DNA of 64,000 nt from Candidatus Omnitrophota bacterium (GCA_043821705.1 JBDRCN010000045.1:22400-86399), one strand, 5' to 3'. Shown: positions 18,001 through 43,566, counted from the stretch's first letter. Notes: a model not told the origin generated them from the sequence alone. Translations and numbers: made by a program.

Positions 18001-21000
18001 AGCAGAAATTCTATCTAATGTGCCATTGAAGTTTATTAGTTCAGGTAATTGAGGAACAATATCGTAGGTTAAACTCCATATTGGTACAACTGTATGTTCA
18101 AACTTTATCTTCCTTATCTTGACAGTAAGAGTATGTATAATATTATCATCATCCGAAGCTACAAAGATGGATCTGTCTTTAATAAGATCTAGCGTCATCT
18201 TTCTTAATAGTGGGCTTTTTATTGAGCGTGCATTTCTTCTTATTCTAGATATCGTACCTGAACGTGTAGCTGTTGCTGACTCGGCTTCATCTATCCAGGC
18301 ATATAATCTCTTTTTATAATCAAATACTATTTCCTGAGGCGTAGAAGCTATTTTATCACCAAAAGTTTGCATGGCACAGTTTACACCAACTTCGCCTTCA
18401 TCCAACAAGAAAGGCACTGTATAACTTATATCCTCATCTGTTACTACAATTCCAAAAGAATATTTTACTCCTTCTTCAAGGCCTATTTTATCTCCCATAC
18501 TAAGCGCATTATTTACAAAATAGTCCAATTTTGCTTTAGCATATTGTTTCATCCTAGGGTCTTCTATATTGTCAATTTGTGTTTTAAGCTCGGAAAGAGT
18601 TCCTGTAAAGCTTATCCTATCAGGCGGCAGTTCTTTCATCTCTACTTGCCAGTATTCCCCTTTCATCTCCTTTACAAATTTCACGCTTAAAATATACTCT
18701 ACGCCCTTTTGTAGTTTAGATAAATTCTTTTCAAACTTCTCTTTGGCAAGTTTCTTTATCTCTGGATCTTTTATGTTAACTATTTCACTATCTATCATAT
18801 GAGACGAGCCCTGAAAGCTCATACCTATACTCTTTACTCTATATCCTGCTCCATCTTCTGAAAGGATAAGTTCTAACTGGGTGCCTGCTTGGAAGACTTC
18901 TCTGCCTTTTGAGGTGTCTATAGTGGTGTCTTTTGTAAATTCTATTACCTTAATCTCTTCTCCATTTGGACCTGCTCTTGTTTCGATTTCTTTTATACAG
19001 TTTGGATATGGTTTACCATCTACCTCAATACCTGTAGAGCCATATATAGTTAATTCATCAACTGATGCTAGATCTGTAAAGAGTCTGATGTTTGTAAGAG
19101 GAAAGAACTGTTCAATGTCAATAATAGGGTGGGTTGGTTCATCTCGAGGCATTATCGACCCACTGTCGGATTCTTTAGGTTCTGGTGTGGTTGTTCCTTT
19201 TTTCTTTTTACTACTAATAATATCTTGATAAATATAGATTGGAACATATACTCCTTCATATAATTCAGAAATCTTAAAGTATGTATCTTCTAGATCTTTC
19301 TTTCTTAGGTACTTAACTGCCGTATCTATACTTGTTTTTTTCACCCATATCGTTCTTTTCTTCTTTCCATTAACGACCTCTCTAACTTTGACATATTTTT
19401 TGCGGTCTATATTTTTGATATTCTTACGCCATATAATATCCTTATTTGCAACAAGACTGTATTTTTTTCCATCAAAAACAATTGTAAAATTCTTGCTAAG
19501 GTCAACTTTATTAATGGGTTCTACTTTGCTCTTAAAAGAATACTCATCTTTCTCTTTCTTAATTTGAACATCTATAGTCAACACCCATCTTAAATCATGT
19601 TTCATCCAATATCTATCGATGGTAGATTCTGCTTCTTTTCGTAATCTTGGATTTTTTAGTTTTTTAACCTTGGCTTCAATCTCTGAAAGTGTACCAGTAA
19701 TTTTTATTGACTCTGGGTATTTCTCGTTAATTTCACCCTTAATACCCTCTCTTGTTGTCCCTACATATAAGGTATACTCTATATCATCTTTAATAAATTT
19801 TGATTCCTTTAATAGTTCTCGGGCAAACTCTTTCAATGCAGTATTTTTTATATTTGCTATTGAAGTTTTTAGTTCTAGGACTGTGCCCATAATTACTATA
19901 GACTCTGCATCTTTTTCTTCAATCATTGATGCCTTGGTATAATCAGTGCCTATCTTCTGCGATTCTGTCTCCTTTATCTTCAATGTAAAATTATAAACCT
20001 TGTCTGATTTAAGGCCTCTGGCATTAATTAATATCTCATGCAAATATTTCTTTACTCTAGGATCTCCTAATTCCTCTATGTCTTTTTTAAATTCCCGAGG
20101 ATACCCTTGATATATAGAGAAATGAGTAAATCTTAAAGGAGGAAATTCTTTTATTTTCCCCTCATATATAGACTCTTTTTCGGTTTCTCTAACATCTATG
20201 GTCAAAATATAAGATACATTTCTCCTCAGTCCTGGAGTATCATTTAATATACGCTCAGCACGTCTTTTCAAATCAGTATCTTTAACATTACGAATTTTAG
20301 TCTTAATCTCTGAAACATCACCTTCGATTCTGAGGAATCCAGGAGATAGCTTTCTAATATCAATCGATGTTGTATATTCACTTCCTATATTTTGGGGTGT
20401 ACTTTCTTCTACATCAAAATAAAGTATATATTTTATATTTTCTTTTTTTGTCAAATCCTTTGCTCTATCTAAAGCTCCCGCTAGATATTCTTTCAAGTCC
20501 TCATCACTTAGTCTGTCAATCTTTCTCCTGATCTCTGAAAAAGTACCGCTAACTTCCATATTTGTTAAATCAATAGATAAATACGCAGTCTTACCTTTAT
20601 AGAGAGAATCTGTTGAAGTTAAGTCTCTAATTATAATTTTATCTTTGTTAGATCCTTTCGAGATCTCCTTAAACTGGACTGTTGGCCTACCGTTAGAATA
20701 AGTTATGCTCAAAACATAGTTCTCTCTTTCACTCCCCGGTGTGTTGTTTTTTAAATACCTTTTAATTCTCGGGTCTTCTATTTTTTCTATCTTATATTTA
20801 AGTTCAGAAAGCGTACCAGTAAGTTTAAGTGGCTTAGGCGGCAGTTCTTTCATCTCTACTTGCCAGTATTCCCCTGGCATCTCCTTTACAAATTTCACGG
20901 TTAAGATATACTCTACACCTTCCTGTAGTTTCGGGAGATTCCTTTCAAATTCCTCTTGAGCAAGTTTTCTAGTTTCAGGATTTTTTGTATTGTTTATTTC

Positions 21001-24000
21001 ATGTTCAATCTTAGAATATGAACCTCGAAACTCTGCTTCTATAGGCTTTGAACGATTTGATAAATCCTTCGTTAGCGTTTGTCCAGTAGAAATTACTGGT
21101 ATATCTTGTATCTTTTTTGGTTTTAGTTTAGCAGTTAATATATCTTTAACTAATTCATCTTCCTGCGGTTGTATGATTGATTCTATTTCCTCTAGCTCTA
21201 AAGTCCCTTCTATTGCCTTGCCTTTACCTTTACTGGGAAAAAGACTTATTTTCTCACCAGAGCTGTATTCTCGTCCGTCAAGGGTTATGTCTTTTAAGAA
21301 AGCAACGATCCTTTCTCCATCTTCATCTCTATTGCCTATATCTACATCAATACCATTATAGAGCTTTACCCTTGTCGTATCTTCTAGCTCTCTTAAAAGG
21401 TAAAAAGGTTTTTTATTTTTTAAGACTGTATTATATACATATTTAATTGGCTCTGGAGGCAGGTATGAACGTCTTGGTTTCTTTAACTTTTTCACAGTAG
21501 AAACAGTTCTTGTCTCCTCCATATCTAACGCCCTTTTTACTTCATAACTTTTCCCATCTTTTTTAAGAGTTAGTATTAACTGATCTCCAGAATAAAACTG
21601 CTCCTGTCCTAATATATTTATCCCTTCTTCTGGGATGTTTTTGAAGGTAACTATTATTGTCCCATCAGCTTGCGGCTCGCTTAGATCTACCTTATCTCCT
21701 ATAATAAATACCTGTGCTTCGTTGTTATACGTAAAGGTAATCTCTTTTACTCCAAAGAAACTCTCTACATCATCTATAGCAGTAATTTCAACTGTGAAGC
21801 CAGGAATAAGAGGTTTTATTTCATCAGGCATCAGTGAACCAGAGTCGGATTCTTCTTCAATAATATCTGTTGGCACAAAAATAATCTTATCCTTCTCATA
21901 TTTAACCTTTACATATTGATTTCTCTCTTTTACAAATCCTATCTCGTTTTCTTCTGGCCACAGAGTCTTTTTATTTATCTTAGCTCCTTCCTTAAATGAC
22001 ACTGCCCAATCTTCATCGATATCCACCTCGGGTTGATTCCATACGTATAGCTTAAATTCCTCACCTTTTCTTACTATACCAGAAGTATTGAGCTTGTTTT
22101 TCTCTTTCTCAATCAATCCTGCTAGAATTATAGCCTTTTTAGCCATAGACTCCATTCCGCTTCTAGGGCCTTCTCCGTAATATGCAAAATTAAAGGCTTT
22201 CTTATAATAAATAGCAGAGTTCTTTAAACATGTAAGAGGATCTAAATCTTCTGGTAGATTTAATATCTTTCCAGCAGAAAAGACGTAACCCATGCTCTCT
22301 GGATCAAGCGGCTGTTTTACAGTCCTATCTCCTAAATAGAGATATATATCTCCTAATTCACTAGATGCTGTTATAAATCCTGGATCCTTCTCTAATGCCT
22401 TTTTGAATAAATCTATTGTTTCTAAAATATAATCGGGTTCCAGATTCTCTCCGTAAATTATATTATGTTTATAAAGTTCTGCCAGATTGGCATAGCCCCA
22501 GACAGAGCCTGGATCTTTTTCAATGGCCTTTTTTAAAAAATCTATTTTCTCTGATTCTTTTTTTAAGCCTACTGATGTGCTTCTTGCATATAAAATATAG
22601 GAAGATAACAGAGCTTCAGGTGTACCTATTCTAATCTTTCTATGTAGTTTCTTTTTAAAATGACTCTCTTTTAACTGCAGATATTGCCCAGGTTCAATTT
22701 TTTTGTATAGCCCGCCAGAACCTTCTAACGGAAAAGGCTCGCTTATGCCTACTCTAGGATTTGATATATCAACTATTATAGATTTGTTATCAGAAAGTTT
22801 GACTAAACTAGCTACATGATATACACCTTCTTGTACTCCACAGGACCATGTAACCTCAATAGGATCTATAGATAAGCCTGCCAATCTACCTAAGATTACA
22901 AAAAGCTGTGTAGAACCTACGCAATTAGCTGAACCAATATAGCCTTTGTCAGCATGTTCTTCATTGAAGACCTTGGTAAGAAGAGCTGGGTAATCACCTC
23001 TATCACTCTTAACTGCATTTTTTATAATTTTCGATAAACTATTAATCCTTTCTAATCTTGGCATATCTTTTATTTTTTCTAACTCATAATTATTATAAAA
23101 ACTAGAAATTTGCTCTACTATTTCCGATTGTTCTTCCAAAGAATATCCTAATTCTTCAATAGCCCCAGAAATTACTTTTTCTATATTAGTTTCAGGTTGA
23201 TTTTCTTCTCCATAACCACCTAAATCCCCCTTGGACCCTTCATTAAGGTCTAATTTCAATCCTTCACCCTTAAGCGCTGCTCTATTGTCTACATCTACAA
23301 TTAGAGATTTAATATATTCACTATCCTCTATAGATAAAAGAAAAATAGGTAATTTAATCCCCTCTTCTTCCAGGTGTTTCTTTATTGCTTCCTTCTGACG
23401 AGAAGGTAACGCTACTATAGCTACTTCATTAGGAGCAAGACGGCTAACAAATTCTTCCTCAAGAAACTCTTCTAGCTCGCCATTCTTCAGTGAATAAAAG
23501 CCTCCTTGAATAAAATGTCTACCATCGAATAAAACCGGAACTTGAATAGGAGCTTTCTGTGAATCTGTTTTGCGAGATTCCTGTTGACTAACTTTTATTA
23601 TATTCCCATCTTTATCAAATGTTACGTCAAAACTTATGTTTGCTAAAAGCATGGCAGTCCCAAATAAAGCCCCTCCTCCACCGCCAAAGGTAAATGTAAA
23701 GGTGTCTTCGCTGAGTCTAGCGGCATCATCTTCAGGTGCATCAATGCTGCTTGTATCCTTAGATTTAGGAGCAGATATTTCTTCAGTAGAAGTCTTGGTT
23801 TTTGGAGCTTGTTTGGAAGGTTCTGGTTCAACATCTATTACAAGCATACCAGTATCATTGTCTTTCTCGATACTAATATCTATCTTTTCTTTTCGAGCTA
23901 CTGAGTTAAATCTCTTTTTAAAATATTTTAATTTATCCTCATCCTTATTAAAATTATGTACGAGTAATATCCTTCCTTTAGGTTTTACTATTCGAAGAAT

Positions 24001-27000
24001 ATCTTTGATGCAGTCATCTATTTCTCTATCTCCTTTCAAGTGTTCAAAAAACCCACTTATGCTCATCTTGGTAATACTGTTGGGCTCTATCTGCTTCATG
24101 CTATCGCCATCATTTTCAATAATATTTACATTATCAGGAATAGCTCCAAGAGTAAGCCCCCAGGCATAAAGCTCTTTTAATAGTTCCGGCACATAGAGTG
24201 GGCTTGCATTTAAAAGAAAATTTTCGTAAGTTGTGTACATAACATCATTAAATTTTCTAAGATTGTTAAAAGCAGAAAAAAGCGCTGTTGTAAATTGAAT
24301 ATTGGTTTCTGATATATCAATATAAAATACCTCTTTTGCATTATAGCTAAAGTAGGCCGCTACTGCATCAGGGCTCATTCCCATCCCAGCGTCACAATAT
24401 GCATCCTCCTTGCTTACATCAAGAAGGTCCATAACATCTGATGCGCAATAATCACGGCTCCATTTAATAAAATTATATCCATTGTCAATACTAGATCTGT
24501 CAAAAGCTTCTACCATAAGATTATCAAACCAGCTAAATTGTCTCATCACGTCTTTTTTAATACGCCCAATATTATCTTCGGTAATTTTTTCATCTCCGAT
24601 TAGATCTGTTACATATGACCACATTTTTTCGGATAATATAGAAGGGCCTGGAGAATTTTTAACTATACGGAGCCGCATAGACATATCCATATCTCTATCT
24701 GACATATCATCTTTAGGAAGTTTATAAGATGCTTTTAGAAAATCATATAGTGAAGCTTCTGGATATAATGATAGGTAGATTAATATAGATGTTAGATATG
24801 CTTCTCTTTCATCAAGACTTGCCATATATCCTAACATTGTATCCGGGATATTCGCTTTATCTCCTCTATTAGACTGCTCAATGTGTGCTAATTCATGGAC
24901 TATTGATGTCATCCTCAAAGAGCTGCCAATAGATACAATAAACGGGACTTTAAAATTTCCTTTAATACCAAGCGCTTCTTTAAATTTATTAAAAGACTGT
25001 TCATTCTCCTTTTCTATAATAAAACCACCTGCAGCATAGCCATGTTCAAGTATCAACCAATCTTTCAGATCAGGATCTTTAAGTGCCTTGTTTTTTTCAT
25101 CATCAGAAATTACTAAAACTTGTGCATTTAAAGATTCGTCGCTTATGTCTAAATTAATAAGAACTTGCTTAGGGATATTTTGTTCATCAATATAATCTCT
25201 CGCAATAAAATCATCTCTTCTAGATTCATCTTCGGAAATAGGTACGGCCTTCTTTAATGCGTCAATAAACTCTCCATCAAATATTTTTAAAAGATCATCA
25301 ATGCTATAAGAATTTTTCACTTTGACCTTACCTTCTAGGTCTTTTCGTATACTCTCATCTTCTTGTTTTAAAAGATCAGATATAGTAAAGATTTTACTTT
25401 CTAAACCTTTAATATGTTTATTTCTCCCAATAATAAATCTCTTAACTCCTTCATCAGCTGCTATAATTAAACTTGCGTTTTCTAAATCACCGCGTACGAT
25501 CGGATAGGCAGATTTTTTATTTTTTAGATCTTCTTTTAAATCATCATCAATTTCAATATATTGAATTATAGATTCTAGCTTGTCTAAGCTAATATCTTCC
25601 CCTTGAGATAATGAGCCAATATCTTCTACTGGCAGATATCCGCGCGAACTTACATTAACACCAGAGATATTATTTTTTGACGCAAGAATAGATAATACTA
25701 TATCCATTTCAGGTCCTCTTAATTGACCGTCACCGCAGATAGTAAGAATATTATATGTATTCGATGAAGGATTTTGTTCAGGTAAATCATTAATGGTATT
25801 CTGTAGTTCTGACTTATCTCCAATTATAGGTATTGTTATCTTAAACGTACTTCCTTTGTCTTTTTCAGACTCTATCCATATCTGGCCATTATGTTCATCT
25901 GTTACATATAGCCTACTTTCAGCTAAGCCAAGGCCTGTCCCACCTTTTCTCTTCGACCAGTTAAGCCCAAACGCCCTTTGGTAAGTCTGGCCTTCTTCCT
26001 GCTCTAGCCCATCTTCAGGGAAGCCTGCTCCATCATTATAGATTTCTAAGACAATACTCTTCTTGTCTTCCGATAGCTTAGTAGTGATAGTAACATTTTT
26101 GATCCCCAGGTCTTCACTTAACTGTTTGTTATTTGTTAAAATATTACTTAAAACACACAATATCATTTTCTGGTTTACCTCTGTCATGGGGATAGAAGAT
26201 AAATTAAGAGTAAGAGTCACGCCTTTTGTTTCAAAATCTTTAAGCATCTTATTGGCTAGATCGTTTACCAATGCATTTAGATCCGTAGGTTCTTTTTTAA
26301 GAGTTCCTCCTAGCCAATCCAATCTTTCATTAAGGACATTTATATTTTCTTGTACAGGAGCTTTGATATCTTTTCGTAATAGGTCAAGGGCTGCTATAAC
26401 ATAGTCAGAACTCTCTTGGGAAACCAGATAATTTTCTAATTCTTCAACTTTATTATAGATAATCTTTGTTTTTTCAAATATATCATTTAAACTATTCTGC
26501 CAAGTATTTTCTACGCCTATCTCTAATTCTTTACTAGCATCTATAGGCGCTGATTTAGCCAGATCGTTATAACTAGAAACTATATCAGTAATGTCTTTAT
26601 TTATCTCATCAAGAGCTGTTATTATCTGATCAGGGTCTTTCCCGTATGTAAATTCGCTAATAGAATTTAAGGCAGGATTAAAATTATTCTTAATGTCGTA
26701 GATCGTTCCATTATGCTCCATGCTTCTTAAGGCAATATATGTCTTCAGGAATTCTTCATTGTCCAACATGGAAGATATTGGCGCAAGAAGACCTACCTTT
26801 TCCTTTATTAAAGATAGGTCATTATTGCTTTTTCTTATTATATTCAGGTAAGTAGCAGCAATGTGCATTCCTGCAGGACAGGCTTCTAAGATCCCAGAGA
26901 CTTCATTAATATCATAATCTTCACCTGACAATAGGATATCTTTAATCAACTTTAGAGATTCTTCGAAGTCTCCGTCTAGAGCAAGGTTCATAGCTTGTTC

Positions 27001-30000
27001 AGTTAAACGAGCTTCTTTAGTCTGAAACTTTTCTTCTACTTCTATAATAAAAGCTGTTTGACGATCTATTGTGCCCTTATTATCTTCTACAATATTTATT
27101 TTTATATTACCCTTTTCTGCTATTGAAATGATCTTATTTTTAAAGTCTTCTACTCCTGAAGGAAAGTCGTATACTACCAGTATTCTGCCGCCTGGCTTAA
27201 CTACTCTAAGCATTTCTCTTATACAGGCATCTATCTTATCCTGGCCACCCTGTTCTTTAAGCCAAGTAAACAACTCTGTTACGCTTAATTTATCTACGCT
27301 GCTAGTCTCTATCTGAGACATATTAGATGCATCACCATGTATAATTTCAGCCTTATCAGAAATAGGATGCATATCGTTAGGCACAAGGCCCCAGGTAAAG
27401 AGCTCTCTTAAAGCTAACGAACCAGAAGCCAAAGACCCTTTCTCATTCAGAAGATTAAAAATTATATCGCTACCTTGAATTTCTTCCAATTGTAAGAAAT
27501 TTTTCCAATTGCTTAAAAAATATTTAGCAAGCATCACATTAGATTCTGAAATATCAAGATAAATTGCTTTTTCAACATTAAACATATTAGCTGCTAATAA
27601 AGTATATAGCCCTGAACCTCCTGCTAGATCAAGATAGACTTCTCCTTCATCGAGTTCCAGCATACTAAATACACTAGCTGCGCTATGAGTACGTGTATCC
27701 CTAACTTGATTTAATGGATTTTCTGTATATAGTTCAAATCTTTTTATCATCAGATCATTGAACCAGCTAAATTTATCAAATACGTCTTGCTTAATATCTA
27801 AAATATTAACTGGGGTAATGTTAGAATAATTTTTAGACTTCATAGTTTTGCCTATTTCAATCCACATGGATTTTTCTACTACTGCAGGGACAACCTCTCC
27901 ATCAACTATTCTATTTTTCATCTTATTTTGTATATAATCATCCGTTAAATCTGGATCGCCTACAGAGATCCTTATAAAATCCTCAAAAGAAATCTCAGGA
28001 TAGAGAGATCTTATTATCAGCATTGGTGTTAAGAATGCTTCTCTTTCTTGTAGATCCCTGACATATCCATCTGCACCAATAACAGATGTAGGCTTTTCAC
28101 CTCTATTACTTTGTTCAACATGGGTCAATTCATGAAATGCTACATTGATATTGTAATCTCCTTCCACAAGAACTGACAGAGGGAGATTAAAATTGCCTTC
28201 TATATTAAGAATAGTTTTTACAGCTTCCCATGTATTAGAAGATTGTTCTGATACAGCAAATGCTCTATGGGTAGGTTCTATAGTCCCTTTTGGAAGCTCT
28301 TTTATCAGTTCTTCTTTTTCTTCTTGAGTAATAATTACGATCTGGGTATTTTGTGTATTATCCATAAAAACAGCGTTCAATAAAGCTTGAGCTTCTGCTG
28401 TTTTTTCTGCTGGGATAATCTCCCCCATAATACCTGGCAAAGAACTTACTCTTCTGGAAGGTTTTGGCGTAAGGGTTTCTTCAACAGCTACTATGCCTGT
28501 ATCAAATTCTTTCTTAGACGAAGAGCTTATTTCCCCGCTTGCGCCATCAATCTTTGCATACTTGGTCTCATTCTTCTCTTTATATTTAAATATAATATCT
28601 CCATTGCTGGAGATGGCTATATCCTTATTGCCTTTCATCTTTTCTGGGCTTGTCTTGACCAACTCAATCATAGTCTTTCTTATACGATTAAACCCATCCG
28701 ATATCTTAAAATCTTTCTCATCTTTTCCATAAAGCTTTGCTAACTGAGGTGCGACCTGCTTATTATACAGAGCTATCATCTCCTTATCAGCTGTTGTAAG
28801 GATGTTCCTTAGCTTATCAGTCATGCTAGATATAAGCTCATCTATAGGCTTACGCTTACCTGAAAGAAGGAATTTATAGTTTTCTTCATCTGTTTCTTGG
28901 GATGAATAAGGAGAGATCACAACATATGAATATCCACTTTCTTTAAGGAGTTTTGTAAGGCCTCTTGTATGAAAACCTCCTGAAACAAGTGCAGCTACTT
29001 TTGCCCTTCTTTTATTTATCTCGCTTGTGGCATTATCATACATCGTATTATCACGCTGATAAGCAAGATCATAGAACTTCTCAAGCGGAGAGAATTTATC
29101 GTCTATAATTGAAGCGTCATAATTTATCGGATAAGTTATGGAGTATTTTTTAAGGCCTTTTTCTATGAATCTCTTAAAAAATGCCATTCTAAACCCATCT
29201 TTATCTGCAAAATATCTATCAAGCTCTTCATTGGATATCTTCAGATTAAAGAAGCCCTCTAAAAATGTGATATTTCGTATGGCCTTTGTAAGGATCAATT
29301 GATCATTATGTGTCGAGATACTGTTCTTAAGATCAAATGAGAGTTCTTCTATTTCACGGAAAAGTTTTAGTGAATCGAGGGAATTGACTTTTGTCAGATA
29401 ATCAACGAAGTGTAAGAGGTTTGGATATTTACTTAACTCTTCCTCTTTTAAGTGTCTCCTGGATAATTCATCTAGATAGCTATAGAAAGAAAATGGGGAG
29501 ATCTTCTTATCTTTAAAGAGAGAAAGCTGAGCAACTAGCTTTTCTATACTAGAATCATCTCTTTTAGACATTAAAGCCCTCTGCAGGCCTTCCAGTATCC
29601 CCTGGGACTCCCCCATCACCTTTTCCCGATCTACTTCTTTTTCTAAAGCCATGCTTTTTCGTAAAAGCGCTATATTTTGGAACTTCTCTTCGTCCAGTGT
29701 TTCATTAAAGTTCCATAGATAATCTAGATATTCATTTGTCTCTATGGAACTATTCTGATAAGAAACTTCTTTTGAATCTAGCTCTAATAACTGTGCAGAA
29801 TATATATGGGTCTTTAATCTATCCAATGCATTTTTAATATTTGAGATCAATGCTAGAGATGGTAGGTTGAACTTCATGACCCTGTTAAATTCGATTATAT
29901 TTTCAAAATATATCTCTTTAGTCTCCACACCCCATATTGCCAGGTCAGGATACTTAGTAATAGAGAGATATTCTTCTCCTGTCAGCTCGCCTGAATCAAT

Positions 30001-30555
30001 AAAAAGACGCGCTGTCTTTTCTCTGATCTGGGCATCCGGAAAACTCGACACACTAGAAGTATCGACCTCACCTTCAGCGCCTTCAGAACAGACTAGATCT
30101 AAATTATAATCTTTTATTAAGATCTCAAGAATGGATGCAAGATTAAGCTCTGCCTCAGGATTAGCATGGAGATCTTGGATATGGACAATAAGAGGTTTTT
30201 TTTCTGCTCCTTCTACCCTAGGAGCTTCATAGACTTCAATTACCTTACCTAAGCTATCTGGGATATATATATTAGATAGATCTTTTAATATATCTTTCTT
30301 TATTTTAGCAGCTATATGGGTCCTATCTGTATTTCTGCTGTCTTGGGGTTTCTTTTTATCAGAAAATATCTCTTTTTTCTGATTTATAGTATCTATCCTT
30401 TCTTTTTGGATAGCTTCATAATTAGGGCGTTTATTTTTAAATAAACTCCTATTGGAGGGTGCAGGATAGCATACACTTGTAAAGAAAAATGTATGCACTA
30501 ATACAAGAGAGATTATCTTCTTATATATATTATTTCCATGCCCAAAGCTTCCCAT
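1..30555 (-). CDS. Giant multidomain surface/secreted protein, at least 10,185 aa, 3' end beyond the window. Mosaic of DUF4157-like zincin + SAM-MTase modules, HATPase_c, transglutaminase-like, HExxH, CHAT-like, papain-like and beta-barrel-like regions, plus many internal repeats.
   Basis: By-eye translation of the reverse complement finds no in-frame stop from ATG 30555..30553 down to base 1; several blocks were spot-checked. ATG is preceded by AAGAGG 8 nt upstream, and an in-frame TGA lies 18 codons further upstream. The N-terminus MGSFGHGNNIYKKIISLVLVHTFFFTSVCYPAPS is signal/anchor-like. The ORF track lists no long ORF on either strand across 30 kb, as expected if one edge-truncated ORF occupies it. 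Confidence 0.85.
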   Translation of the reverse strand, partial: MGSFGHGNNIYKKIISLVLVHTFFFTSVCYPAPSNRSLFKNKRPNYEAIQKERIDTINQKKEIFSDKKKPQDSRNTDRTHIAAKIKKDILKDLSNIYIPDSLGKVIEVYEAPRVEGAEKKPLIVHIQDLHANPEAELNLASILEILIKDYNLDLVCSEGAEGEVDTSSVSSFPDAQIREKTARLFIDSGELTGEEYLSITKYPDLAIWGVETKEIYFENIIEFNRVMKFNLPSLALISNIKNALDRLKTHIYSAQLLELDSKEVSYQNSSIETNEYLDYLWNFNETLDEEKFQNIALLRKSMALEKEVDREKVMGESQGILEGLQRALMSKRDDSSIEKLVAQLSLFKDKKISPFSFYSYLDELSRRHLKEEELSKYPNLLHFVDYLTKVNSLDSLKLFREIEELSFDLKNSISTHNDQLILTKAIRNITFLEGFFNLKISNEELDRYFADKDGFRMAFFKRFIEKGLKKYSITYPINYDASIIDDKFSPLEKFYDLAYQRDNTMYDNATSEINKRRAKVAALVSGGFHTRGLTKLLKESGYSYVVISPYSSQETDEENYKFLLSGKRKPIDELISSMTDKLRNILTTADKEMIALYNKQVAPQLAKLYGKDEKDFKISDGFNRIRKTMIELVKTSPEKMKGNKDIAISSNGDIIFKYKEKNETKYAKIDGASGEISSSSKKEFDTGIVAVEETLTPKPSRRVSSLPGIMGEIIPAEKTAEAQALLNAVFMDNTQNTQIVIITQEEKEELIKELPKGTIEPTHRAFAVSEQSSNTWEAVKTILNIEGNFNLPLSVLVEGDYNINVAFHELTHVEQSNRGEKPTSVIGADGYVRDLQEREAFLTPMLIIRSLYPEISFEDFIRISVGDPDLTDDYIQNKMKNRIVDGEVVPAVVEKSMWIEIGKTMKSKNYSNITPVNILDIKQDVFDKFSWFNDLMIKRFELYTENPLNQVRDTRTHSAASVFSMLELDEGEVYLDLAGGSGLYTLLAANMFNVEKAIYLDISESNVMLAKYFLSNWKNFLQLEEIQGSDIIFNLLNEKGSLASGSLALRELFTWGLVPNDMHPISDKAEIIHGDASNMSQIETSSVDKLSVTELFTWLKEQGGQDKIDACIREMLRVVKPGGRILVVYDFPSGVEDFKNKIISIAEKGNIKINIVEDNKGTIDRQTAFIIEVEEKFQTKEARLTEQAMNLALDGDFEESLKLIKDILLSGEDYDINEVSGILEACPAGMHIAATYLNIIRKSNNDLSLIKEKVGLLAPISSMLDNEEFLKTYIALRSMEHNGTIYDIKNNFNPALNSISEFTYGKDPDQIITALDEINKDITDIVSSYNDLAKSAPIDASKELEIGVENTWQNSLNDIFEKTKIIYNKVEELENYLVSQESSDYVIAALDLLRKDIKAPVQENINVLNERLDWLGGTLKKEPTDLNALVNDLANKMLKDFETKGVTLTLNLSSIPMTEVNQKMILCVLSNILTNNKQLSEDLGIKNVTITTKLSEDKKSIVLEIYNDGAGFPEDGLEQEEGQTYQRAFGLNWSKRKGGTGLGLAESRLYVTDEHNGQIWIESEKDKGSTFKITIPIIGDKSELQNTINDLPEQNPSSNTYNILTICGDGQLRGPEMDIVLSILASKNNISGVNVSSRGYLPVEDIGSLSQGEDISLDKLESIIQYIEIDDDLKEDLKNKKSAYPIVRGDLENASLIIAADEGVKRFIIGRNKHIKGLESKIFTISDLLKQEDESIRKDLEGKVKVKNSYSIDDLLKIFDGEFIDALKKAVPISEDESRRDDFIARDYIDEQNIPKQVLINLDISDESLNAQVLVISDDEKNKALKDPDLKDWLILEHGYAAGGFIIEKENEQSFNKFKEALGIKGNFKVPFIVSIGSSLRMTSIVHELAHIEQSNRGDKANIPDTMLGYMASLDEREAYLTSILIYLSLYPEASLYDFLKASYKLPKDDMSDRDMDMSMRLRIVKNSPGPSILSEKMWSYVTDLIGDEKITEDNIGRIKKDVMRQFSWFDNLMVEAFDRSSIDNGYNFIKWSRDYCASDVMDLLDVSKEDAYCDAGMGMSPDAVAAYFSYNAKEVFYIDISETNIQFTTALFSAFNNLRKFNDVMYTTYENFLLNASPLYVPELLKELYAWGLTLGAIPDNVNIIENDGDSMKQIEPNSITKMSISGFFEHLKGDREIDDCIKDILRIVKPKGRILLVHNFNKDEDKLKYFKKRFNSVARKEKIDISIEKDNDTGMLVIDVEPEPSKQAPKTKTSTEEISAPKSKDTSSIDAPEDDAARLSEDTFTFTFGGGGGALFGTAMLLANISFDVTFDKDGNIIKVSQQESRKTDSQKAPIQVPVLFDGRHFIQGGFYSLKNGELEEFLEEEFVSRLAPNEVAIVALPSRQKEAIKKHLEEEGIKLPIFLLSIEDSEYIKSLIVDVDNRAALKGEGLKLDLNEGSKGDLGGYGEENQPETNIEKVISGAIEELGYSLEEQSEIVEQISSFYNNYELEKIKDMPRLERINSLSKIIKNAVKSDRGDYPALLTKVFNEEHADKGYIGSANCVGSTQLFVILGRLAGLSIDPIEVTWSCGVQEGVYHVASLVKLSDNKSIIVDISNPRVGISEPFPLEGSGGLYKKIEPGQYLQLKESHFKKKLHRKIRIGTPEALLSSYILYARSTSVGLKKESEKIDFLKKAIEKDPGSVWGYANLAELYKHNIIYGENLEPDYILETIDLFKKALEKDPGFITASSELGDIYLYLGDRTVKQPLDPESMGYVFSAGKILNLPEDLDPLTCLKNSAIYYKKAFNFAYYGEGPRSGMESMAKKAIILAGLIEKEKNKLNTSGIVRKGEEFKLYVWNQPEVDIDEDWAVSFKEGAKINKKTLWPEENEIGFVKERNQYVKVKYEKDKIIFVPTDIIEEESDSGSLMPDEIKPLIPGFTVEITAIDDVESFFGVKEITFTYNNEAQVFIIGDKVDLSEPQADGTIIVTFKNIPEEGINILGQEQFYSGDQLILTLKKDGKSYEVKRALDMEETRTVSTVKKLKKPRRSYLPPEPIKYVYNTVLKNKKPFYLLRELEDTTRVKLYNGIDVDIGNRDEDGERIVAFLKDITLDGREYSSGEKISLFPSKGKGKAIEGTLELEEIESIIQPQEDELVKDILTAKLKPKKIQDIPVISTGQTLTKDLSNRSKPIEAEFRGSYSKIEHEINNTKNPETRKLAQEEFERNLPKLQEGVEYILTVKFVKEMPGEYWQVEMKELPPKPLKLTGTLSELKYKIEKIEDPRIKRYLKNNTPGSERENYVLSITYSNGRPTVQFKEISKGSNKDKIIIRDLTSTDSLYKGKTAYLSIDLTNMEVSGTFSEIRRKIDRLSDEDLKEYLAGALDRAKDLTKKENIKYILYFDVEESTPQNIGSEYTTSIDIRKLSPGFLRIEGDVSEIKTKIRNVKDTDLKRRAERILNDTPGLRRNVSYILTIDVRETEKESIYEGKIKEFPPLRFTHFSIYQGYPREFKKDIEELGDPRVKKYLHEILINARGLKSDKVYNFTLKIKETESQKIGTDYTKASMIEEKDAESIVIMGTVLELKTSIANIKNTALKEFARELLKESKFIKDDIEYTLYVGTTREGIKGEINEKYPESIKITGTLSEIEAKVKKLKNPRLRKEAESTIDRYWMKHDLRWVLTIDVQIKKEKDEYSFKSKVEPINKVDLSKNFTIVFDGKKYSLVANKDIIWRKNIKNIDRKKYVKVREVVNGKKKRTIWVKKTSIDTAVKYLRKKDLEDTYFKISELYEGVYVPIYIYQDIISSKKKKGTTTPEPKESDSGSIMPRDEPTHPIIDIEQFFPLTNIRLFTDLASVDELTIYGSTGIEVDGKPYPNCIKEIETRAGPNGEEIKVIEFTKDTTIDTSKGREVFQAGTQLELILSEDGAGYRVKSIGMSFQGSSHMIDSEIVNIKDPEIKKLAKEKFEKNLSKLQKGVEYILSVKFVKEMKGEYWQVEMKELPPDRISFTGTLSELKTQIDNIEDPRMKQYAKAKLDYFVNNALSMGDKIGLEEGVKYSFGIVVTDEDISYTVPFLLDEGEVGVNCAMQTFGDKIASTPQEIVFDYKKRLYAWIDEAESATATRSGTISRIRRNARSIKSPLLRKMTLDLIKDRSIFVASDDDNIIHTLTVKIRKIKFEHTVVPIWSLTYDIVPQLPELINFNGTLDRISAQVQKIKYSSMKDAALELIDKERKEGKKQNVKEYKLSVIPEFEKKGKKIKGIIYKMAFKKTMKSIRFLETYPGRKVLARSFGFDVEIAISTNGNMNVFIGEEYGMYKSSKYGHYMSDLARYKDDNFVCCDISTSFPSLPADFTGCKLELYVKEVPDSFHYKLDKRLNEIGISFITSDGQEIFHPSFVINVSADGWKKIYIPNDLDMTSVKEIRFYSGKKYGSQKLSNKGIGQIYITHIKLTPLKTLVPVEKSIVPKDAGSLIPDETQPHIDTKQILPLTNITLFTDLASVDELTRYGSTGIEVDGKPYPNCIKEVKTRIGAEGRITVIEFTKDTTIEAEFFPKYTQLELISEDGVTFKVTWEELLDKIEFDQKAIVGSLFIDNKKFVLKAIEKNPKVLEYVSDSFKDDKNIVFAAAVKNTFTIRFASDRLKNDKEFILDIVVQAPSIIYHMEFRGDKEFVSKAVEKNSMAIEFASKRLQEDADIVLIIKKKINSHVRDISSKFGFEVDIPRFFDALVTFLRGSSNRWLISGRYKLETLERKLLEIKEALSVYPEAFLKNCITVKIVVNPYIYNMKTDKYNFSLGKWFSRIFITSTPSIHHEIFHHADSKDDYLPFHLWSNDDSSWPESLGSKDYDCDHGQINIREDQATIADSFFGRHSFFELLTRCRESSILLAKVERITSCKLDLETYRFTRLYTEEELEELYDDGYEYYAKWSMDEEGKIWMDHNYWNNIIHGDSEKKEEPQKPQKIFEENKDVEPEKKPFINEINIKGFFDYEHLYPKIDVGIVNPLGDSWSPIKISSNTFQLSTHESNMFMASSASTMDKKGEYATDMGLSLWGYVPLNYRSWVDDLIKTNEYSSLRSDSYLGMMLDAYRAYPGLFGIKDMSYGAGISTNIFINPSLGTSSWYAKPSVGIYKSFKQDYIDNLFISGYALLNGFINPSIIDDPAGYLSEFKIGLNADFEIADDISIGLSGNVSRFYRKWFGVGAMNIDFSLSKDILLKANAWGRTPFTSSGLNYSIDPEDQYQWGGGISLNTDYGEANFNFMKIGEFWQPDGDGHTLDRIEAGISLKLGKILGGLIGGSLLNNLISTDNINVSYLHRIDDYNVIDKPSIEEDSEIISEGYIIPEGSGQEFFYQVTKDGIKVTSSDGEEFTSESTNLVTALVPFIFGAKKAMTPIITFLDKDRNVLGVGNLGDMIDFWTRSGLDSEGAPTNTKLLEVLKRIQEKKTPEPEKEPDSGSLVPDGIIQPQPETEQIFPFSNIIPFVDLASIDKLTPIDSYTGIEVDGKPYPNCIKEVKTRIGAEGRITIVEFTKDTTIEAEFFPKYTQLGLVLQEDGIGYKVTELIKSDLSKDYIIVYDGQKHSLIHKDDVEYELDGWSEDKSLYVLGVRMVNGKIKERVLIKKSSIDSATDLIKKQDIAKSPYEISELKYQVYVSKEMKYKIDRGSAKEKEPQKTKDITGRSDIPVDEDFDFIVSPSTEGILSPSSAGISLSERDTEKEKSYYMELARDDPKRAMEDMDKYIDKPWAKEIFKVMLIEGKIVGDTFIVKPFLAKWISKSWAPEILDLIYVFNENLSRHYKIFIDQPYGLEFLESKVIFAPFEAIDGGSKLIFGGNDRGQLTDFIFATLTRNSDFIEVLKRSKNPIVKKLCGLYDWGVKNVPLKSQEDALWTTLLLDKIVKNNLSFEKAYNIAKDPSLLLKNIIEIKRQPDYLGSFSITNGLKMICLRAIWDINYLHDSSDTIRFRSVETFDSETLYTLMVYGENEVFTSTFNGLFTRMLNKMKKEGLTAKTLFKKVDYNKFRVMIKLCASYNRLNEFLNTVTKDEKIHLLKRFVRIKSDDKDLLSQAVIIADTFSMIQDKEVLKVLQETIKEEYHKVLKKDNKEARVIYGLLSGLFSEKAVLSTDWFKKMSKKYKLQDITKLPTKNLFNEDEVSIQRFYSYNDEDGKASYNSLLNQYKGKKAWQIKDKDSYTLIISRPTNGKRIELYVNKPEFEDKGQAAIDKALKGKKVHIEVHMGHSYHVNKTIKRINPEAELVVLRSCGGYNEISDILDKTPQAHIISTKGTGTMYVNDPLLYLLNTEILKGKDISWPAFWEKAEDRLGHNGAFGNYIAPHKNLGVMFIKAYKRLLREEESKESDSGSIMPDETHPHIDTKQILPLINITFFTDLASVDGLTIYGSTGIEVDGKSYPNCIKEVDNPDGEEIIAVEFTKETYIDTPQGKEFFPTGTQLELIRSEDGVRYKVRSINRRFQGSYSSIKDKINNIKDARMRKEAEKVFNKKLPKLQKGVEYVLDIKLTKTMKGEEWQVEMKEIPPQTLKLTGTLSELRVKIENIQDPRVKEYAEETLDHCLKEIRPLLEAGVTYTIGILIGLNLDLKGKAIDSPGPDFTPWYSNEEWERSKVQWLNSHGSPSMILEPTEPCDIGFKYTQLRWINETNIPDKIELTGTFSEIKAKAKKIKSPLIRALFFEHFYKHLNIIDAEYDLSIISARGDNGEFNGISMEWRSSLSSETHYEDIKSYLTSKDTSSVTLVDAYRKTLERIKRRLNSKNITIDEAVKLKKEKDIIERNIVIEEINKCYNEAKLNATGLDYKEAANAYKRASKIIEERLNNKTISADEKKDLKKYKTKAEIAILKAKINGLIKEINDLGIFDTLLGKRYPIKQEALKKIDKLLEYREIKGSERKELKELRKLMKGKLPSPKDIKRRFEEYRIQKSIDNTKFAKEKKVKYRTANKDFTQPLSPIKVDLSRYYTIVFDGKKYSLVPNTAVKAKWSKGYISANKVVNGKKGKKVWVKKSKIDDAKYYETKDLIRYSPYRISKVYKGVYIPAYISMLMLISPNPLEILSDDWTNRELFIKAFGLEAFGFIQDKIDKAASSDEGLTQKTLIKLIWQLKEFVKKEQPDTGSLMPEKDADRIDLPSTDLTSVEAEISGISLADIDDVESFFGVKEITFTYNNEAQAFIIGDKVDVSEPQADGTIIVTFRENGVNILGLGTFYPENQLKLTLKDDGKYSVEVIRGSDKEEKARLNYFKEEIYLQVLDIENLGIEVSLLGISDELDFEAIDEWLKTDRTTPGRDEIRLEYLYQKVHAVKEQLLRYPKIFLKNSNFKKIAINPKYVGHSSNQEVTNYIKSRFWPTTMTLSNYQYFHHELFHIMDFNDDYIPYIWTNDDSSWPESLELEDCAGGHGQGSFKEDQAAIAESLFNFSYPLFSEILEKCKKSKVLLAKVERMTSCKLDLETYRFTRLYTEEELEELYDDGYEYYAKWSMDENGKIWMDHNYWNNIIDGDSEKKEEPQKPQKILEESKDRKLEKHAAPEPEEEPKHSYLPPEPIKYIYNTVLKNKKPFYLLRELEDMTKVKLYNGIDVDIGNRDEDGERIVTFLKDITLDGREYSSGEKISLFPSKGKGKTRKGVLEPEEIKSITQLQKDKLVKDISMELEEELEEDPIEIFTEQILAKDLLSSSKDIETEFRGSYSEIKHEIGNTEDAEIKKVAKEEFEKNLPKLQEGVEYILTVKFVKEMPGESWQVEMKELPPKPLKLTGTLAELRVKIEALEDSRMRQYAKEYLDYYKVSKRLFYNAEEGIKYEFGIMTLDKGCPNNIQESSGRDGSYGMSEGWVKFELRNAGYKIAEAPEEIGMDFKKRQRGWLNELEIPEERFIGTITEIKEQAKKIKSPLLRHYFFRYVSISFAFSRENLKYDLTLRAKKELEKHPDTFYSWRFYSKCSIIPEQKIFTGSLKEIGEQVKKLPHPMMKKSVLDLVNKTRAKAGGKDFRYTLIASYECKDKKDKWLLRCESTIKNVAPLIFIEKATMRNIGSIVSAVGRMNIFIDGVSQYYSAGGIYSEYNYVDFVFDKPLDLTGCELQLDVRKTPSGTNFKSKGRLKEIAISFVTSDGKEIFDSSFKIDVSTDGIKKIYMPSNLDLTSVTKIKMYTGKRYGENEILLNEPDCTINIKKMKLIPVSTDKKEGQPKKNSDTGLIIPEPDSGQTFPFPQHSYPTGITATISGISLADIDDVESFFGVKEITFTLSNGEAQAFIIGDKVDLSEPQADGSIILTFKNIPEEGINILGQVKVYRGNQLELTPKGDGKFSIEVVRKGSIAESKEPEQRDTESIMSRPELDQNIQSPSSLGTEIMSGVPIGDNYTPETVPDEGYMPVTFGGGGVGEVKMISDKEINLRMNGITVSFNESNSEITWDKMTGKRTITVKKDILDEDGEVVFEARNGIEITPDKESIYKIAFTAPSNDLTATISGISLADMSGTVDKGIKVLSLASNEEARELIIGDDVIKLDKESINGKLVYKIGKDRVYIPGEKEPLKKEDRLELTLNEDGKYDVKIVRLGEAINNILVQHQTKGDEQTRPTVYDPPTEAEPSNDTKYPNIHYNAQGPFDLSLPCTIFAALSMFDKIGILKDVEKNNGLSTYGDIDIYAANITYSSDQSLFPFDKLRDYMNQQAELYGSDVRFEMEETLSYKEKGRVTLEERLADTNIQKYGMILIIDNHGPHSVHITSFSKETNEVTYYDSIGLDGAENIKKLPLEQFKDILYLQGRDPVNYPKYYNTIVPVMEGKPVEDYTSKELVEKLLDKEITKEDIEKLQQPKGEMIKRVKTLPEERLLKKKLDKILEKGPVLIESSPLKDEKGDHHWLYGDRKIESYTALFGLFRYCSDNLFSWDMDKVGVDNSAYFYSEEDGYAPLSDPEVYLIDEKGGGVNYIIREKSVFYVATDKTNKVVAFGFSLYQKDLGYEYLLIQEGHEEFEELKDLYNEETREAISKIEEKGKVFIEVFKEQLKHRAKYLEKLNKIGSEETKENYNKALEIINEAIDDNESSDAAKEFFKKKKIEIEEKLNELDEEKDTGSLIPDETQPQIDDELGNYIVSGVIGYATANLNDGAVDIETEIIELKDSKTGEEIILKEGKNCIIEDRGNVQTVVILEDINRNLTVGVVAIVTGNKITGRDNLKNNKVAIKAIVNELASDRRRSDDFYKTAGNLLINSLIENKKIIDTDMISTMIKGLENTNISSIQYAALGSVLIVALREIFYGASKHMITNQMKGDLISNLRAALNNPKIDNRKLYTISQIRKYVRITNASENLDADILTALSSVRQGDEGLNEDVFDKIMQNIAHIKSNREKIVLSMLEILEAPNLTNGTYELALSSINAKYDLGTMPEPLRKRLYSVSMRFLKSTSTDKATKGVFLILKRIYNELGPEEKIDLLFTFIDILNTSKETTEGSYWIYGILPDIDLGDITSEEKNKIIRGISKTGDTKAIIALFENETIQSGGFDSRTKNMVTKTVVGLCNNKDPETALLILNLSNIEISQKEKIVVFKSIIANIKSLSKLKEVLQKFKRQNMELNKEVKEIIVNATIDLFKYDPDHSSGIIYALELKKDDLAEDFVRAAISNIKKGDYGSVIAFHRVKSINNIQGLLEEDKKYIFKACIATLGDETIVDLRRSQHYLSNLIVDFYKTNPEFFKDVKSFPTKGHYLIVKYSNLTLTDIDNIQLQSYMGSQLERFTFPDMYYLIATLGIDLKKCRNEAQLGKEIAVRLNEFTKNAQDIKEIDLRKVLEKISIWMNVLHVRQFTLTEHESDNIRETFVKNLSNNSAYYLMALGKDHLYPTTIEAVYEKHIKDNQGFFQDNTIDPNRAYSYDFLMSLLDYGHFVEVFDKNEEYFISPIERPLDDMEKIAANVNRLKRPLDLIFSDNVPDSYQREIEKVIVSKYKKYYKEYKRTGDPIPVASIASIFARFDGRFITQDAIDMSNAIKDMGIKEKMVPTEDIFSDKKLTMLIVFDRGPLEPWIDIAASKYRDLRYNVEKVEIEKGRKYIVRRTVGGIQEIFVLTDYVPTIQYYFDNGITYNGRPVPEEKRIPIDVFMPRVHTGNSIGYLNYTKNLRSVAIVVVASCGGNKVINDQMEDIRTYYEKFGGAIFIGNIPHGRGKRNQEVAEKLEEVLLENKDNDKLSRESLVKDPNFEVSEGDIILDYVNNVDILPDPSTIFKEYIVSVFNTAGSFMGTFNVELD
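250..650 (-). other. CHAT / caspase-like His-Cys domain #2 of the giant protein
   Basis: RVHTGNSIGY...AIVVVASCGGNKV (about 340..425) mirrors domain #1. Confidence 0.35.
4380..4860 (-). other. Papain-fold (C39-like) cysteine peptidase-like domain of the giant protein
   Basis: SLPCTIFAALSMF (about 4801..4855), then GPHSVHITSF (about 4503..4527), then VTYYDSIG. Confidence 0.35.
8130..8720 (-). other. HExxH zincin-like module, copy B
   Basis: QYFHHELFHIMDFNDDY...DDSSWPES at about 8488..8577. Its tail at 8125..8340 is about 93% nt-identical to 15735..15960. Confidence 0.45.
11700..12100 (-). other. CHAT / caspase-like His-Cys domain #1 of the giant protein
   Basis: HIEVHMGHSYHVN about 30 aa before ELVVLRSCGGYNE (about 11850..11975). 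Confidence 0.4.
14650..15700 (-). other. Outer-membrane beta-barrel-like segment inside the giant protein
   Basis: Roughly 350 aa of alternating short amphipathic strands rich in G/S/N/Y, with aromatic strand ends (...AMNIDFSLSKDILLKANAW, ...NFNFMKIGEFW). Confidence 0.3.
15750..16330 (-). other. HExxH zincin-like module, copy A (duplicated roughly 200-aa module)
   Basis: IHHEIFHHADSKDDY...DDSSWPES at about 16120..16210. Module ends with a conserved ...YEYYAKWSMDE.GKIWMDHNYWNNII tail. Confidence 0.45.
22150..22650 (-). other. TPR-like repeats following the transglutaminase-like core
   Basis: KAIEKDPGSVWGYANLAELY / KALEKDPGFITASSELGDIYLYLG repeat pattern. Confidence 0.4.
22700..22960 (-). other. 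Transglutaminase-like cysteine peptidase core of the giant protein
   Basis: GSANCVGSTQLFVILGRLAGLSIDPIEV...YHVASLV...IVDISN fits the transglutaminase-like Cys/His/Asp pattern. Encoded about 22806..22935. Confidence 0.5.
23900..24450 (-). other. Class I SAM-dependent methyltransferase-like domain #2 of the giant protein
   Basis: CDAGMGMSPDAV (about 24361..24393) and LRIVKPKGRILLVHNF (about 23951..23995). Confidence 0.45.
24800..24950 (-). other. DUF4157-like HExxH zincin domain #2 of the giant protein
   Basis: Motif SIVHELAHIEQSNRGDKA (about 24850..24900), paralogous to #1. Confidence 0.5.
25850..26200 (-). other. GHKL / HATPase_c-like ATPase domain of the giant protein
   Basis: N-box LSNILTNN, G1 box YNDGAGFP, G2 box GGTGLGLAESRLY, then GSTFKITIP. 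Confidence 0.55.
27100..27700 (-). other. Class I SAM-dependent methyltransferase-like domain #1 of the giant protein
   Basis: Motif I YLDLAGGSGLY (about 27604..27634) and LRVVKPGGRILVVYDF (about 27170..27205). Confidence 0.5.
28050..28250 (-). other. DUF4157-like HExxH zincin domain #1 of the giant protein
   Basis: Motif VAFHELTHVEQSNRGEKP, encoded around 28096..28150 (minus strand). Confidence 0.5.
30455..30555 (-). other. N-terminal signal peptide / membrane anchor of the giant protein
   Basis: Positively charged KK followed by the hydrophobic stretch IISLVLVHTFFFTSV, then CYPAPS. Confidence 0.6.
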
Positions 30556-30849: not shown

Positions 30850-31425
30850 TTATTTAGATAGGGTTATTGTTTTTTGGGATTGGTACTTTCCTTTGCGGTC
30901 AGAGTAGGTAGTGTCACACTCTTCCTGGGACTCAAAGAATATGATCTGGGCTATGCCTTCATTAGCATATATCTTCACCTGGGAGGCTCCTGTATTGGAG
31001 ATATCCATCGTTAAGTACCCCTCCCAGCCTGGTTCTAGGGGAGTGACATTGACTATGACACCACACCTGGCATAAGTGCTCTTACCAGTACAGAGCGCTA
31101 GTACGTTCTTAGGCATCTTAAAGTACTCTAATGACCTGGCTAATACAAATGAATTCGGGGGAATAATGCAATATTCCCCCGAATGATCTTCAAATAGATC
31201 CTTATTTATATTCTTAGGATCAAGTATGTCTTCTTTCTTGCCTCTAAACAATTTAAACTCATTTGAGAGTCTTATGTCATATCCGAAGCTAGAAGGTCCA
31301 TAAGATATCTTACCATCTCTTACTTGCTTCATCTGGAATGGCTTTATAATATCTTCTTCCAAAGCCATTTTTTTTATCCAGGTATCTGGTTTTATTGACA
31401 TAGTTTTAACACTTTGAATATCCAC
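30850..31425 (-). CDS. dcd: dCTP deaminase
   Basis: [14 protein letters not shown]...[36 protein letters not shown]. The true start is probably the internal Met MSIKPDTW at about 31401, giving an ATGA overlap with nrdJ. Confidence 0.8.
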
Positions 31426-39100: not shown

Positions 39101-39136
39101 CTTGTGTCATGTGTCCTGTGACTTGCAACTTGAATA

Positions 39137-41013: not shown

Positions 41014-41031
41014 GGTTCACGAATCACGATT
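40955..41031. repeat. Tandem heptanucleotide repeat array arranged as an imperfect palindrome (CGTAATY x4 ... RATCACG x4), batA-batB spacer
   Basis: cgtaatc cgtaatt cgtaatc cgtaatt cgtgatg cgcaatc ggttcac gcatcac ggttcac gaatcac. Confidence 0.8.
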
Positions 41032-42560: not shown

Positions 42561-42609
42561 ATTTAGATACTTACTTCTAATACCTTCTTAGTGCTTTTTA
42601 ACCCACTCT

Positions 42610-43542: not shown

Positions 43543-43566
43543 GAATTACGAATTACGCATTACGAA
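43493..43566. repeat. Tandem heptanucleotide repeat array in two opposed blocks (ACCGTGA x5 / TACGAAT x5), DUF58-moxR spacer
   Basis: accgtga accgtga tgcgtga accgtga ttcgcga tctgt tacgaat cacgaat tacgaat tacgcat tacgaat. Confidence 0.8.

Follow-up and report, generated by a model that had tools for sequence, protein, structure and literature searches.

In the window, the 64,000-nucleotide stretch of Candidatus Omnitrophota DNA analysed here (GCA_043821705.1, JBDRCN010000045.1:22400-86399), a giant minus-strand gene encodes two copies of a didomain in which a zincin-like HExxH domain is followed by a class I methyltransferase. Module 1 lies at 27016–28407 (amino acids, aa, 717–1180) and module 2 at 23806–25185 (aa 1791–2250), both on the minus strand. 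The two modules are a real and rare fused unit, and the zincin-methyltransferase fusion is a new architecture. It is fairly probable that they are diverged copies of one fused enzymatic unit, made of a rare, undescribed zincin and a class I methyltransferase within a multi-enzyme Omnitrophota giant, and that the zincin-like half has the role of a peptidase.

One minus-strand frame is open from 30606 to base 1 of the window. A GA-rich, Shine-Dalgarno-like stretch precedes an ATG at 30555, and the open reading frame (ORF) beginning there (1–30555, minus strand) runs past window base 1 and encodes at least 10,185 aa. Protein numbering is from this Met, so that residue n corresponds to window position 30555−3(n−1). 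The protein extends past the window, and what is said of it here refers to the 10,185 aa encoded within.

The giant protein was compared with itself by chunked BLASTP. The two modules were homologous over ~440 aa (aa 717–1159 against 1791–2233), with 33% identity and E values down to 6e-55, confirming the duplicated cassette that an earlier note on this DNA had proposed from the sequence alone. The HExxH motifs (HELTHVEQSNRG at 28099–28134, aa 808–819, in copy 1; HELAHIEQSNRG at 24862–24897, aa 1887–1898, in copy 2) were located where that note had placed them, and the methyltransferase motifs that it listed (YLDLAGGSG at 27604–27636 and VKPGGRIL at 27172–27204 in copy 1; CDAGMGMS at 24370–24402 and VKPKGRIL at 23962–23994 in copy 2) were present too, all on the minus strand in a single ORF. 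Its term “tandem” was right as to two copies but not as to direct adjacency, as 610 aa (aa 1181–1790) including a HATPase_c domain separate the modules; likewise, its range of 23900–28300 located the modules correctly but slightly clipped both. An AlphaFold2 model of the whole of module 1 (predicted local distance difference test score, pLDDT, 91.3; predicted template modelling score, pTM, 0.87) predicted one compact didomain.

The zincin-like domain occupies 27721–28353 (aa 735–945) in copy 1 and 24487–25131 (aa 1809–2023) in copy 2, both on the minus strand. HMMER profile searches of 1.84 billion (1.84e9) representative proteins gave 32 matches for the didomain halves, from which P0024 (a repeat protein, false positive) and P0031 (a generic 180-aa methyltransferase, non-specific) were dropped. 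The zincin-like half was found without the methyltransferase in 17 of the representative proteins, ranging from stand-alone proteins of 248–456 aa up to proteins of 2,131 aa; one of them, P0003, had two copies. The family alignment comprised 20 sequences, 21–35% identical to the window copy. H74, E75, H78, E103, D125, D138 and W164 were invariant in it, corresponding to H808, E809, H812, E837, D859, D872 and W898 of copy 1, and Y97, A106, P119 and R128 were near-invariant. E103, the candidate third zinc ligand, is E837 in copy 1 (codon at 28045–28047, minus strand, in EREA, 25 residues past H812) and E1916 in copy 2, whose HExxH reads HELAH (aa 1887–1891); the Ala of this ExxA was nearly invariant. 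Copy 1 kept all 13 conserved positions of the family and copy 2 kept 10 of 13, including all four putative metal-binding or catalytic residues.

A model of the zincin-like domain was predicted with AlphaFold on the family alignment (pLDDT 91.2, pTM 0.86). Strands at 4–8, 31–34 and 59–63 were followed by a helix (69–83) carrying HExxH (74–78) and by a long helix (101–117) carrying E103. The model thus contained the elements of the zincin-like metallopeptidase core, described as a three-stranded sheet, an HExxH helix and a Glu-bearing helix (PMC5512222): the sheet precedes, HExxH is on a helix, and the Glu is on the next long helix. HExxH with ExxA 25 residues later on the next helix is a gluzincin arrangement. 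The word “zincin” of the earlier note was therefore borne out at the superfamily level, by the invariant HExxH...E and the core topology.

Structural likeness of the model to known peptidases was remote, and unrelated helical proteins appeared at similar Z. The likenesses were to M36 fungalysin; M4 thermolysin and Pseudomonas elastase; M1 ERAP1, tricorn-interacting factor F3, LTA4H and other M1 aminopeptidases; M3 PepF and Dcp; lugdulysin (M30); PPEP-2 and PPEP-3; the VgrG2b effector domain; and M48 peptidases. Foldseek of the model against PDB gave no match, and PDB sequence searches with module 1 and with the zincin profile gave nothing significant. No Pfam family matched either HExxH half, even at E ≤ 10. 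When the zincin profile was aligned by hhalign with the window's own M48 peptidase, only 13 motif columns were aligned. A word-indexed homologue search with module 1 gave nothing at E ≤ 1e-3, the same kind of search with the zincin alignment gave only P0027, and the two-module alignment found no relative in the contigs of GTDB representatives. We take the HExxH half to be a new and very rare zincin family whose site is of the gluzincin type; this fold assignment leans chiefly on the invariant residues and the topology, and structural comparison corroborates it weakly. The 3.8-kb contig of P0027 (locus L001) also carries a PIN/VapB pair.

The earlier note had called the HExxH halves DUF4157-type. 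The hallmark of DUF4157 is its association with loci and effectors of extracellular contractile injection systems (eCIS); the domain bears HExxH and marks injected toxins (PMC11297309). If the present domain were of this type, it would be the loading/adaptor or protease part of a contractile-injection effector or polymorphic toxin, and the methyltransferase its toxic cargo. Both window copies do read HExxHxxQ, and 3 of the 20 family members reached PF13699 (now eCIS_core; 79 profile positions, gathering cutoff 22 bits), all below threshold; the two matches seen in detail (14.3 and 16.9 bits) were of members reading HELTHVKQ. These matches, however, covered only profile positions 60–78 of 79 (14–18 residues of the HExxH helix), DUF6782, M78 and M91 matched family members as weakly, and neither window copy matched PF13699 even at E ≤ 10 in a hidden Markov model search. 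The Q that had been taken as part of the signature was not conserved in the 20-sequence family, which includes HELTHALSE, HELTHAVRL, HEATHLIRK and HEMAHATNK. The present domain is also much longer (~210 aa, including conserved C-terminal helices of its own, compared with 79 positions for PF13699), carries further invariant residues downstream (a Glu, two Asp and a Trp), and is internal, starting at aa 735 and aa 1809, instead of N-terminal. No contractile-injection or type VI secretion genes (sheath, tube, baseplate) were found in the 33-kb flank, in the syntenic locus L021 of a second genome (below) or beside P0027. The DUF4157 assignment therefore did not hold, and a DUF4157/eCIS_core-type effector is highly unlikely. 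What is shared with DUF4157 is the HExxH(xxQ) helix, with resemblance of the window copies and three relatives over 14–18 residues, membership of the broad zincin world, and occurrence in large, possibly delivered proteins.

The methyltransferase domain follows at 27016–27720 (aa 946–1180) in copy 1 and 23806–24486 (aa 2024–2250) in copy 2, both on the minus strand. Copy 1 has motif I (YLDLAGGSG), the beta-2 acidic residue in YLDIS, GDA and VKPGGRIL. It matched Methyltransf_11 (PF08241) with 43.5 and 36.7 bits (cutoff 21.2) and Methyltransf_25 with 29.0 and 28.9 bits (cutoff 27). Copy 2 matched PF08241 at 21.9 bits, borderline against the cutoff of 21.2, and its motif I was degenerate (CDAGMGMS for LDLAGGPG). 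The class I motifs that the earlier note had seen behind each HExxH were thus upheld by Pfam in copy 1, and in copy 2 only at the borderline.

The profile search also found 12 further members of the methyltransferase subfamily, all in large proteins (837–5,182 aa). Their alignment was characterized by motif I VYLDLAGGPG, the acidic residue of YLDIS, an invariant Asn, GDA, DNS[VI]TK[LV]SV and LRVxKPGG. Of 22 conserved positions, copy 1 kept 18 and copy 2 kept 14, the G, P and G of motif I being lost in the latter (AGMGMS). Copy 2 retained the beta-2 acidic D, a glycine-rich motif I was present in copy 1 only, and copy 2 was the longest branch in a neighbour-joining tree. The methyltransferase half had a Rossmann-like methyltransferase fold, and the family profile found solved methyltransferases by sequence, weakly (E 7e-6). 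The nearest methyltransferase structures were small-molecule and lipid enzymes. For copy 1 the assignment as a methyltransferase is well founded. With the motif I glycines lost, binding of S-adenosylmethionine (SAM) by copy 2 is probably impaired. Unlike the Methyltransf_11/UbiE-SmtA type in general, the present family has a ~60-aa helical insert after beta-2/beta-3, DNS[VI]TK[LV]SV is specific to the present subfamily, and copy 2 is without the glycine-rich loop. A PADLOC match to mad2 (8e-12) was considered as a sign of a defence system and was rejected as generic methyltransferase similarity.

Giant ORFs are rich in low-information repeats, and HExxH and G-rich strings could in principle occur in such an ORF by chance, without domain meaning. 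Four HExxH were seen in the whole ORF against 0.12 expected from the protein's own composition, and the four form two pairs in two different duplicated segments. This excess, together with the duplication, the family-wide invariance of the residues, the confident fold predictions and the Pfam methyltransferase match above cutoff, ruled out the chance-motif reading, whose probability is close to nil.

Besides module 1 and module 2, only one sequence among the representatives searched, P0001, had both halves, making three in all. P0001 was part of an ORF of at least 1,716 aa reaching the end of JGI contig Ga0210019_1000922 (locus L021, from a metagenome scan). Its didomain, at aa 588–1026, shared 39.5% identity with module 1 and 34.6% with module 2. 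The genes for BatB, a BatC-like TPR protein, BatD, a TPR/SH3 protein, ribonucleotide reductase and dCTP deaminase (dcd) and the giant gene are in the same order at L021 and in the window, and the neighbour proteins were 52–73% identical to their window counterparts, indicating that the didomain is conserved in a positional orthologue. Over their first 560 aa, the two giants were unrelated.

A linker helix, F[SN]W[FY][NDE][DN]L[MW], was kept in all three didomains. Outside the fused form it was not conserved, and its specificity allowed it to be used as a search pattern. In a neighbour-joining tree of each half the three didomain copies grouped together, and the two trees were congruent (no bootstrap). 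This grouping in both trees points to a single fusion of the halves and a later, though ancient, duplication.

Some results weigh against a fused enzymatic unit with a peptidase half. No sequence profile ties the zincin-like domain to a curated peptidase family, and the predicted packing of the didomain rests on only the three sequences that span both halves. The pairing is also not obligatory, because in P0002 another methyltransferase-like segment (aa 780–900) takes the place of zincin-like domain 1, beside a methyltransferase that is 41% identical and lies at the corresponding position. The methyltransferase-methyltransferase arrangement of P0002 is in itself evidence of domain swapping between orthologous giants.

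Alternatively, the zincin-like domain could have lost protease function and now partner the methyltransferase as a structural element, a substrate binder or a regulator, with HExxH kept for metal-dependent binding or for hydrolysis of a non-peptide. The prediction of the halves as one compact unit with a conserved linker would suit such a partner, as would the remoteness of the likeness to real peptidases, and the toxicity of DUF4157 was reported to be independent of its metalloprotease motif, with a chaperone role suggested (PMC11297309). The general-base Glu and the three ligand positions were, however, invariant in all 20 sequences, including stand-alone proteins of 250–450 aa without the methyltransferase. 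Such invariance is what one expects of a catalytic site that selection maintains, independently of the methyltransferase, and we regard loss of the protease function as rather unlikely.

Cleavage and methylation are coupled in some known systems, namely the prepilin peptidase/N-methyltransferase PilD and CaaX processing by Ste24 and then ICMT. The present didomain might similarly be a cleave-then-methylate enzyme, the peptidase making a new protein terminus, on the giant or on a target protein, and the fused methyltransferase methylating it. The predicted rigid fusion with its conserved linker is consistent with this, as is retention of the fusion through the duplication and in the syntenic orthologue. 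But each half was far commoner without the other, copy 2 has a degraded SAM motif beside an intact zincin site, P0002 has another methyltransferase in place of the zincin, and the nearest methyltransferase structures were small-molecule or lipid enzymes and not protein-terminus methylases. We therefore consider a coupled enzyme improbable.

We return to the reading of a fused unit with a peptidase half, its steps taken in order of falling confidence. From its invariant catalytic residues in divergent stand-alone relatives, the zincin-like domain would be an active zinc hydrolase. Its substrate may be a protein, either the giant polyprotein itself, so that neighbouring enzymatic modules would be freed or activated, or target proteins, and the methyltransferase beside it would modify a substrate. 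Copy 2 may retain the peptidase function only. Zincin-like metallopeptidase domains in polyvalent proteins of phages and plasmids were predicted to act in self-processing or in attack on targets (Iyer et al. 2017, PMC5512222), and embedded C39 and S8 peptidases were proposed to cut Omnitrophota giants into smaller polypeptides (West-Roberts et al. 2023, 10.1101/2023.11.21.568195). By analogy with these two proposals, self-processing or target cleavage would be the most economical role.

As SAM and ATP are cytoplasmic cofactors, the didomain would have to work in a cytoplasm. The SAM- and ATP-dependent domains may act in that of the producer, if the protein is held by an N-terminal anchor, or, following delivery, in the cytoplasm of a host or prey; this second option would fit the predatory or epibiotic way of life that has been proposed for Omnitrophota (West-Roberts et al. 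2023, bioRxiv 10.1101/2023.11.21.568195). In a more elaborate form, the giant would be an exported polyprotein “toolbox” of a predatory or epibiotic cell and the didomain a bifunctional processor that cuts the giant or a prey or host protein, the methyltransferase capping the product. We give this form little credence.

A Kyte-Doolittle scan of the giant protein found the segment KKIISLVLVHTFFFTSVCY (30460–30516, minus strand, aa 14–32) as the sole strongly hydrophobic segment in the 10,185 aa. It may be either a signal peptide or an N-terminal anchor, the topology being ambiguous with charged flanks on both sides. Relatives share a common, signal-peptide-like start, K(I/V)ISL...YAAPSxRSLFKNKK, ending YA|AP; the giant protein itself reads VCYPAPS. 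On these features, secretion of the giant protein, which the earlier note had taken for granted, is plausible.

The segment belongs to an N-terminal “head” (28756–30555, minus strand, aa 1 to ~600) that represents a conserved Omnitrophota protein family and had no Pfam match over its ~570–600 aa. Sixty-two relatives of the head were retrieved, with 45–56% identity. Most were stand-alone proteins of 560–580 aa and some were fused to further enzymes or domains; fusions to ParB-N, phosphoglycerate kinase, glucosamine-6-P deaminase or FHA domains were seen among them. P0002 was the nearest N-terminal relative (51% identical over the N-terminal 600 aa). All but one of the source names of the relatives were Candidatus Omnitrophica, Omnitrophota or Gorgyraea, the weakest match being an Endomicrobium protein. 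The nearest matches of the NAD synthetase of the neighbourhood were also from Omnitrophota metagenome-assembled genomes (49–50% identity). By the names of these relatives, the host is a member of the Omnitrophota.

The replicon context was compared with that of polyvalent proteins. The giant gene is chromosomal, in a housekeeping neighbourhood (a Bat operon, ribonucleotide reductase, dcd, M48 and others) that is syntenic in a second genome, and not on a phage, prophage or conjugative element. Polyvalent proteins (PMC5512222) resemble the present protein in the sheet, HExxH-helix and Glu-helix core, compared by topology, and in that one to several zincin copies are spread among other, unrelated enzymatic domains (methyltransferases among them) of very large polypeptides. 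They differ in being encoded by phages or conjugative elements, whereas this gene is an Omnitrophota one beside the Bat operon, ribonucleotide reductase and dcd, and the partner here is a small-molecule-type class I methyltransferase joined by a dedicated linker, not a DNA adenine methylase.

The only Pfam domains found in the 10,185 aa were methyltransferase, HATPase_c, TPR and DUF4116. The HATPase_c domain between the modules (25816–26325, minus strand, aa 1411–1580) is a histidine-kinase-type ATPase, matched by Pfam at 7.6e-14 and by NCBIfam models of the C-terminal halves of histidine kinases. Pfam gave no HisKA domain in this stretch, and no H-box was seen upstream by eye.

PF08241 (137 proteins) and PF02518 (136) are the two largest members of one co-occurrence module that a 2026 preprint reports for Omnitrophota proteins of 10,000 aa or more (10.64898/2026.06.07.730766). 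The present protein combines Omnitrophota origin, at least 10,000 aa and PF08241 with PF02518, and with its TPR it resembles the giants described in that work and in 10.1101/2023.11.21.568195. It differs from them in its peptidase-like part: the peptidases discussed there are C39 and S8, and here it is a zincin-like domain without a Pfam match, which a Pfam-based survey would miss. The words “HExxH”, “zincin” and “metalloprotease” were not found when both papers were searched for them. Archaeovorin-type giants (West-Roberts et al. 2023) carry glycosyl transferases, hydrolases, NUDIX, peptidases and SAM methylases, whereas no glycosyl transferase, hydrolase, NUDIX or dockerin domain was found in the in-window part of the present protein. 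The earlier note had judged the cassette unusual. This is right for the zincin-methyltransferase fusion, which is new, but methyltransferase with HATPase_c had already been reported for Omnitrophota giants.

The giants of the Omnitrophota rank with the longest proteins known, and their sequence is mostly unannotated. One unannotated piece is now defined: a rare zincin-like family whose limits are clear, whose catalytic signature is intact and which is inherited in fusion with a methyltransferase. A tempting DUF4157/eCIS label is corrected. If it is an active peptidase, the didomain, at ~450 aa of expressible size, would be a concrete candidate for the long-suspected self-processing of Omnitrophota polyproteins. 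No new principle is involved, as both multi-enzyme giants containing methyltransferase and HATPase domains and polyproteins with zincins scattered through them have been described.

Other features were seen in the giant ORF. The other pair of HExxH motifs lies in a second duplicated module (15715–16539 and 8053–8922, minus strand; aa 4673–4947 and 7212–7501), whose copies are 52% identical and contain HHEIFHHADSKDDY and HHELFHIMDFNDDY. It had no detected similarity to the first module, matched nothing in Pfam or among PDB sequences, and is possibly a further metallohydrolase-like domain that has yet to be characterised. A CX5R-like string, ICGDGQLRGPE (~25708–25740, minus strand, aa ~1606–1616), resembles the P-loop of low-molecular-weight phosphotyrosine phosphatase/ArsC at the motif level only, with no Pfam or PDB sequence support. 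A Cys...His...Asp string (ANCVGST...YHVASL...IVDISN; ~22750–22930, minus strand, aa ~2543–2600) recalls the cores of transglutaminase-like cysteine peptidases, again at the motif level only and with no Pfam match, and is followed by TPR repeats (aa 2674–2743). Long internal repeats extend over ~5000–21900 (minus strand, aa ~2896–8500), with 88% identity between aa 3027–3126 and 7501–7600 and 74% between aa 3027–3269 and 7501–7742; DUF4116 repeats are near aa 4567–4602.

Upstream of the giant gene, the ribonucleotide reductase gene (31406–36223, minus strand) encodes 1,605 aa with intein and LAGLIDADG homing-endonuclease insertions. Its counterpart in L021 has only 1,209 aa, indicating that the two genomes differ in intein content. 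A complete Bat/MoxR aerotolerance-type operon (36405–44604, minus strand), comprising MoxR AAA_3, DUF58, BatA, BatB, TPR, BatD and TPR-SH3 genes, lies just upstream of ribonucleotide reductase, dcd and the giant gene, and is syntenic in L021 from BatB on, the part that L021 covers.

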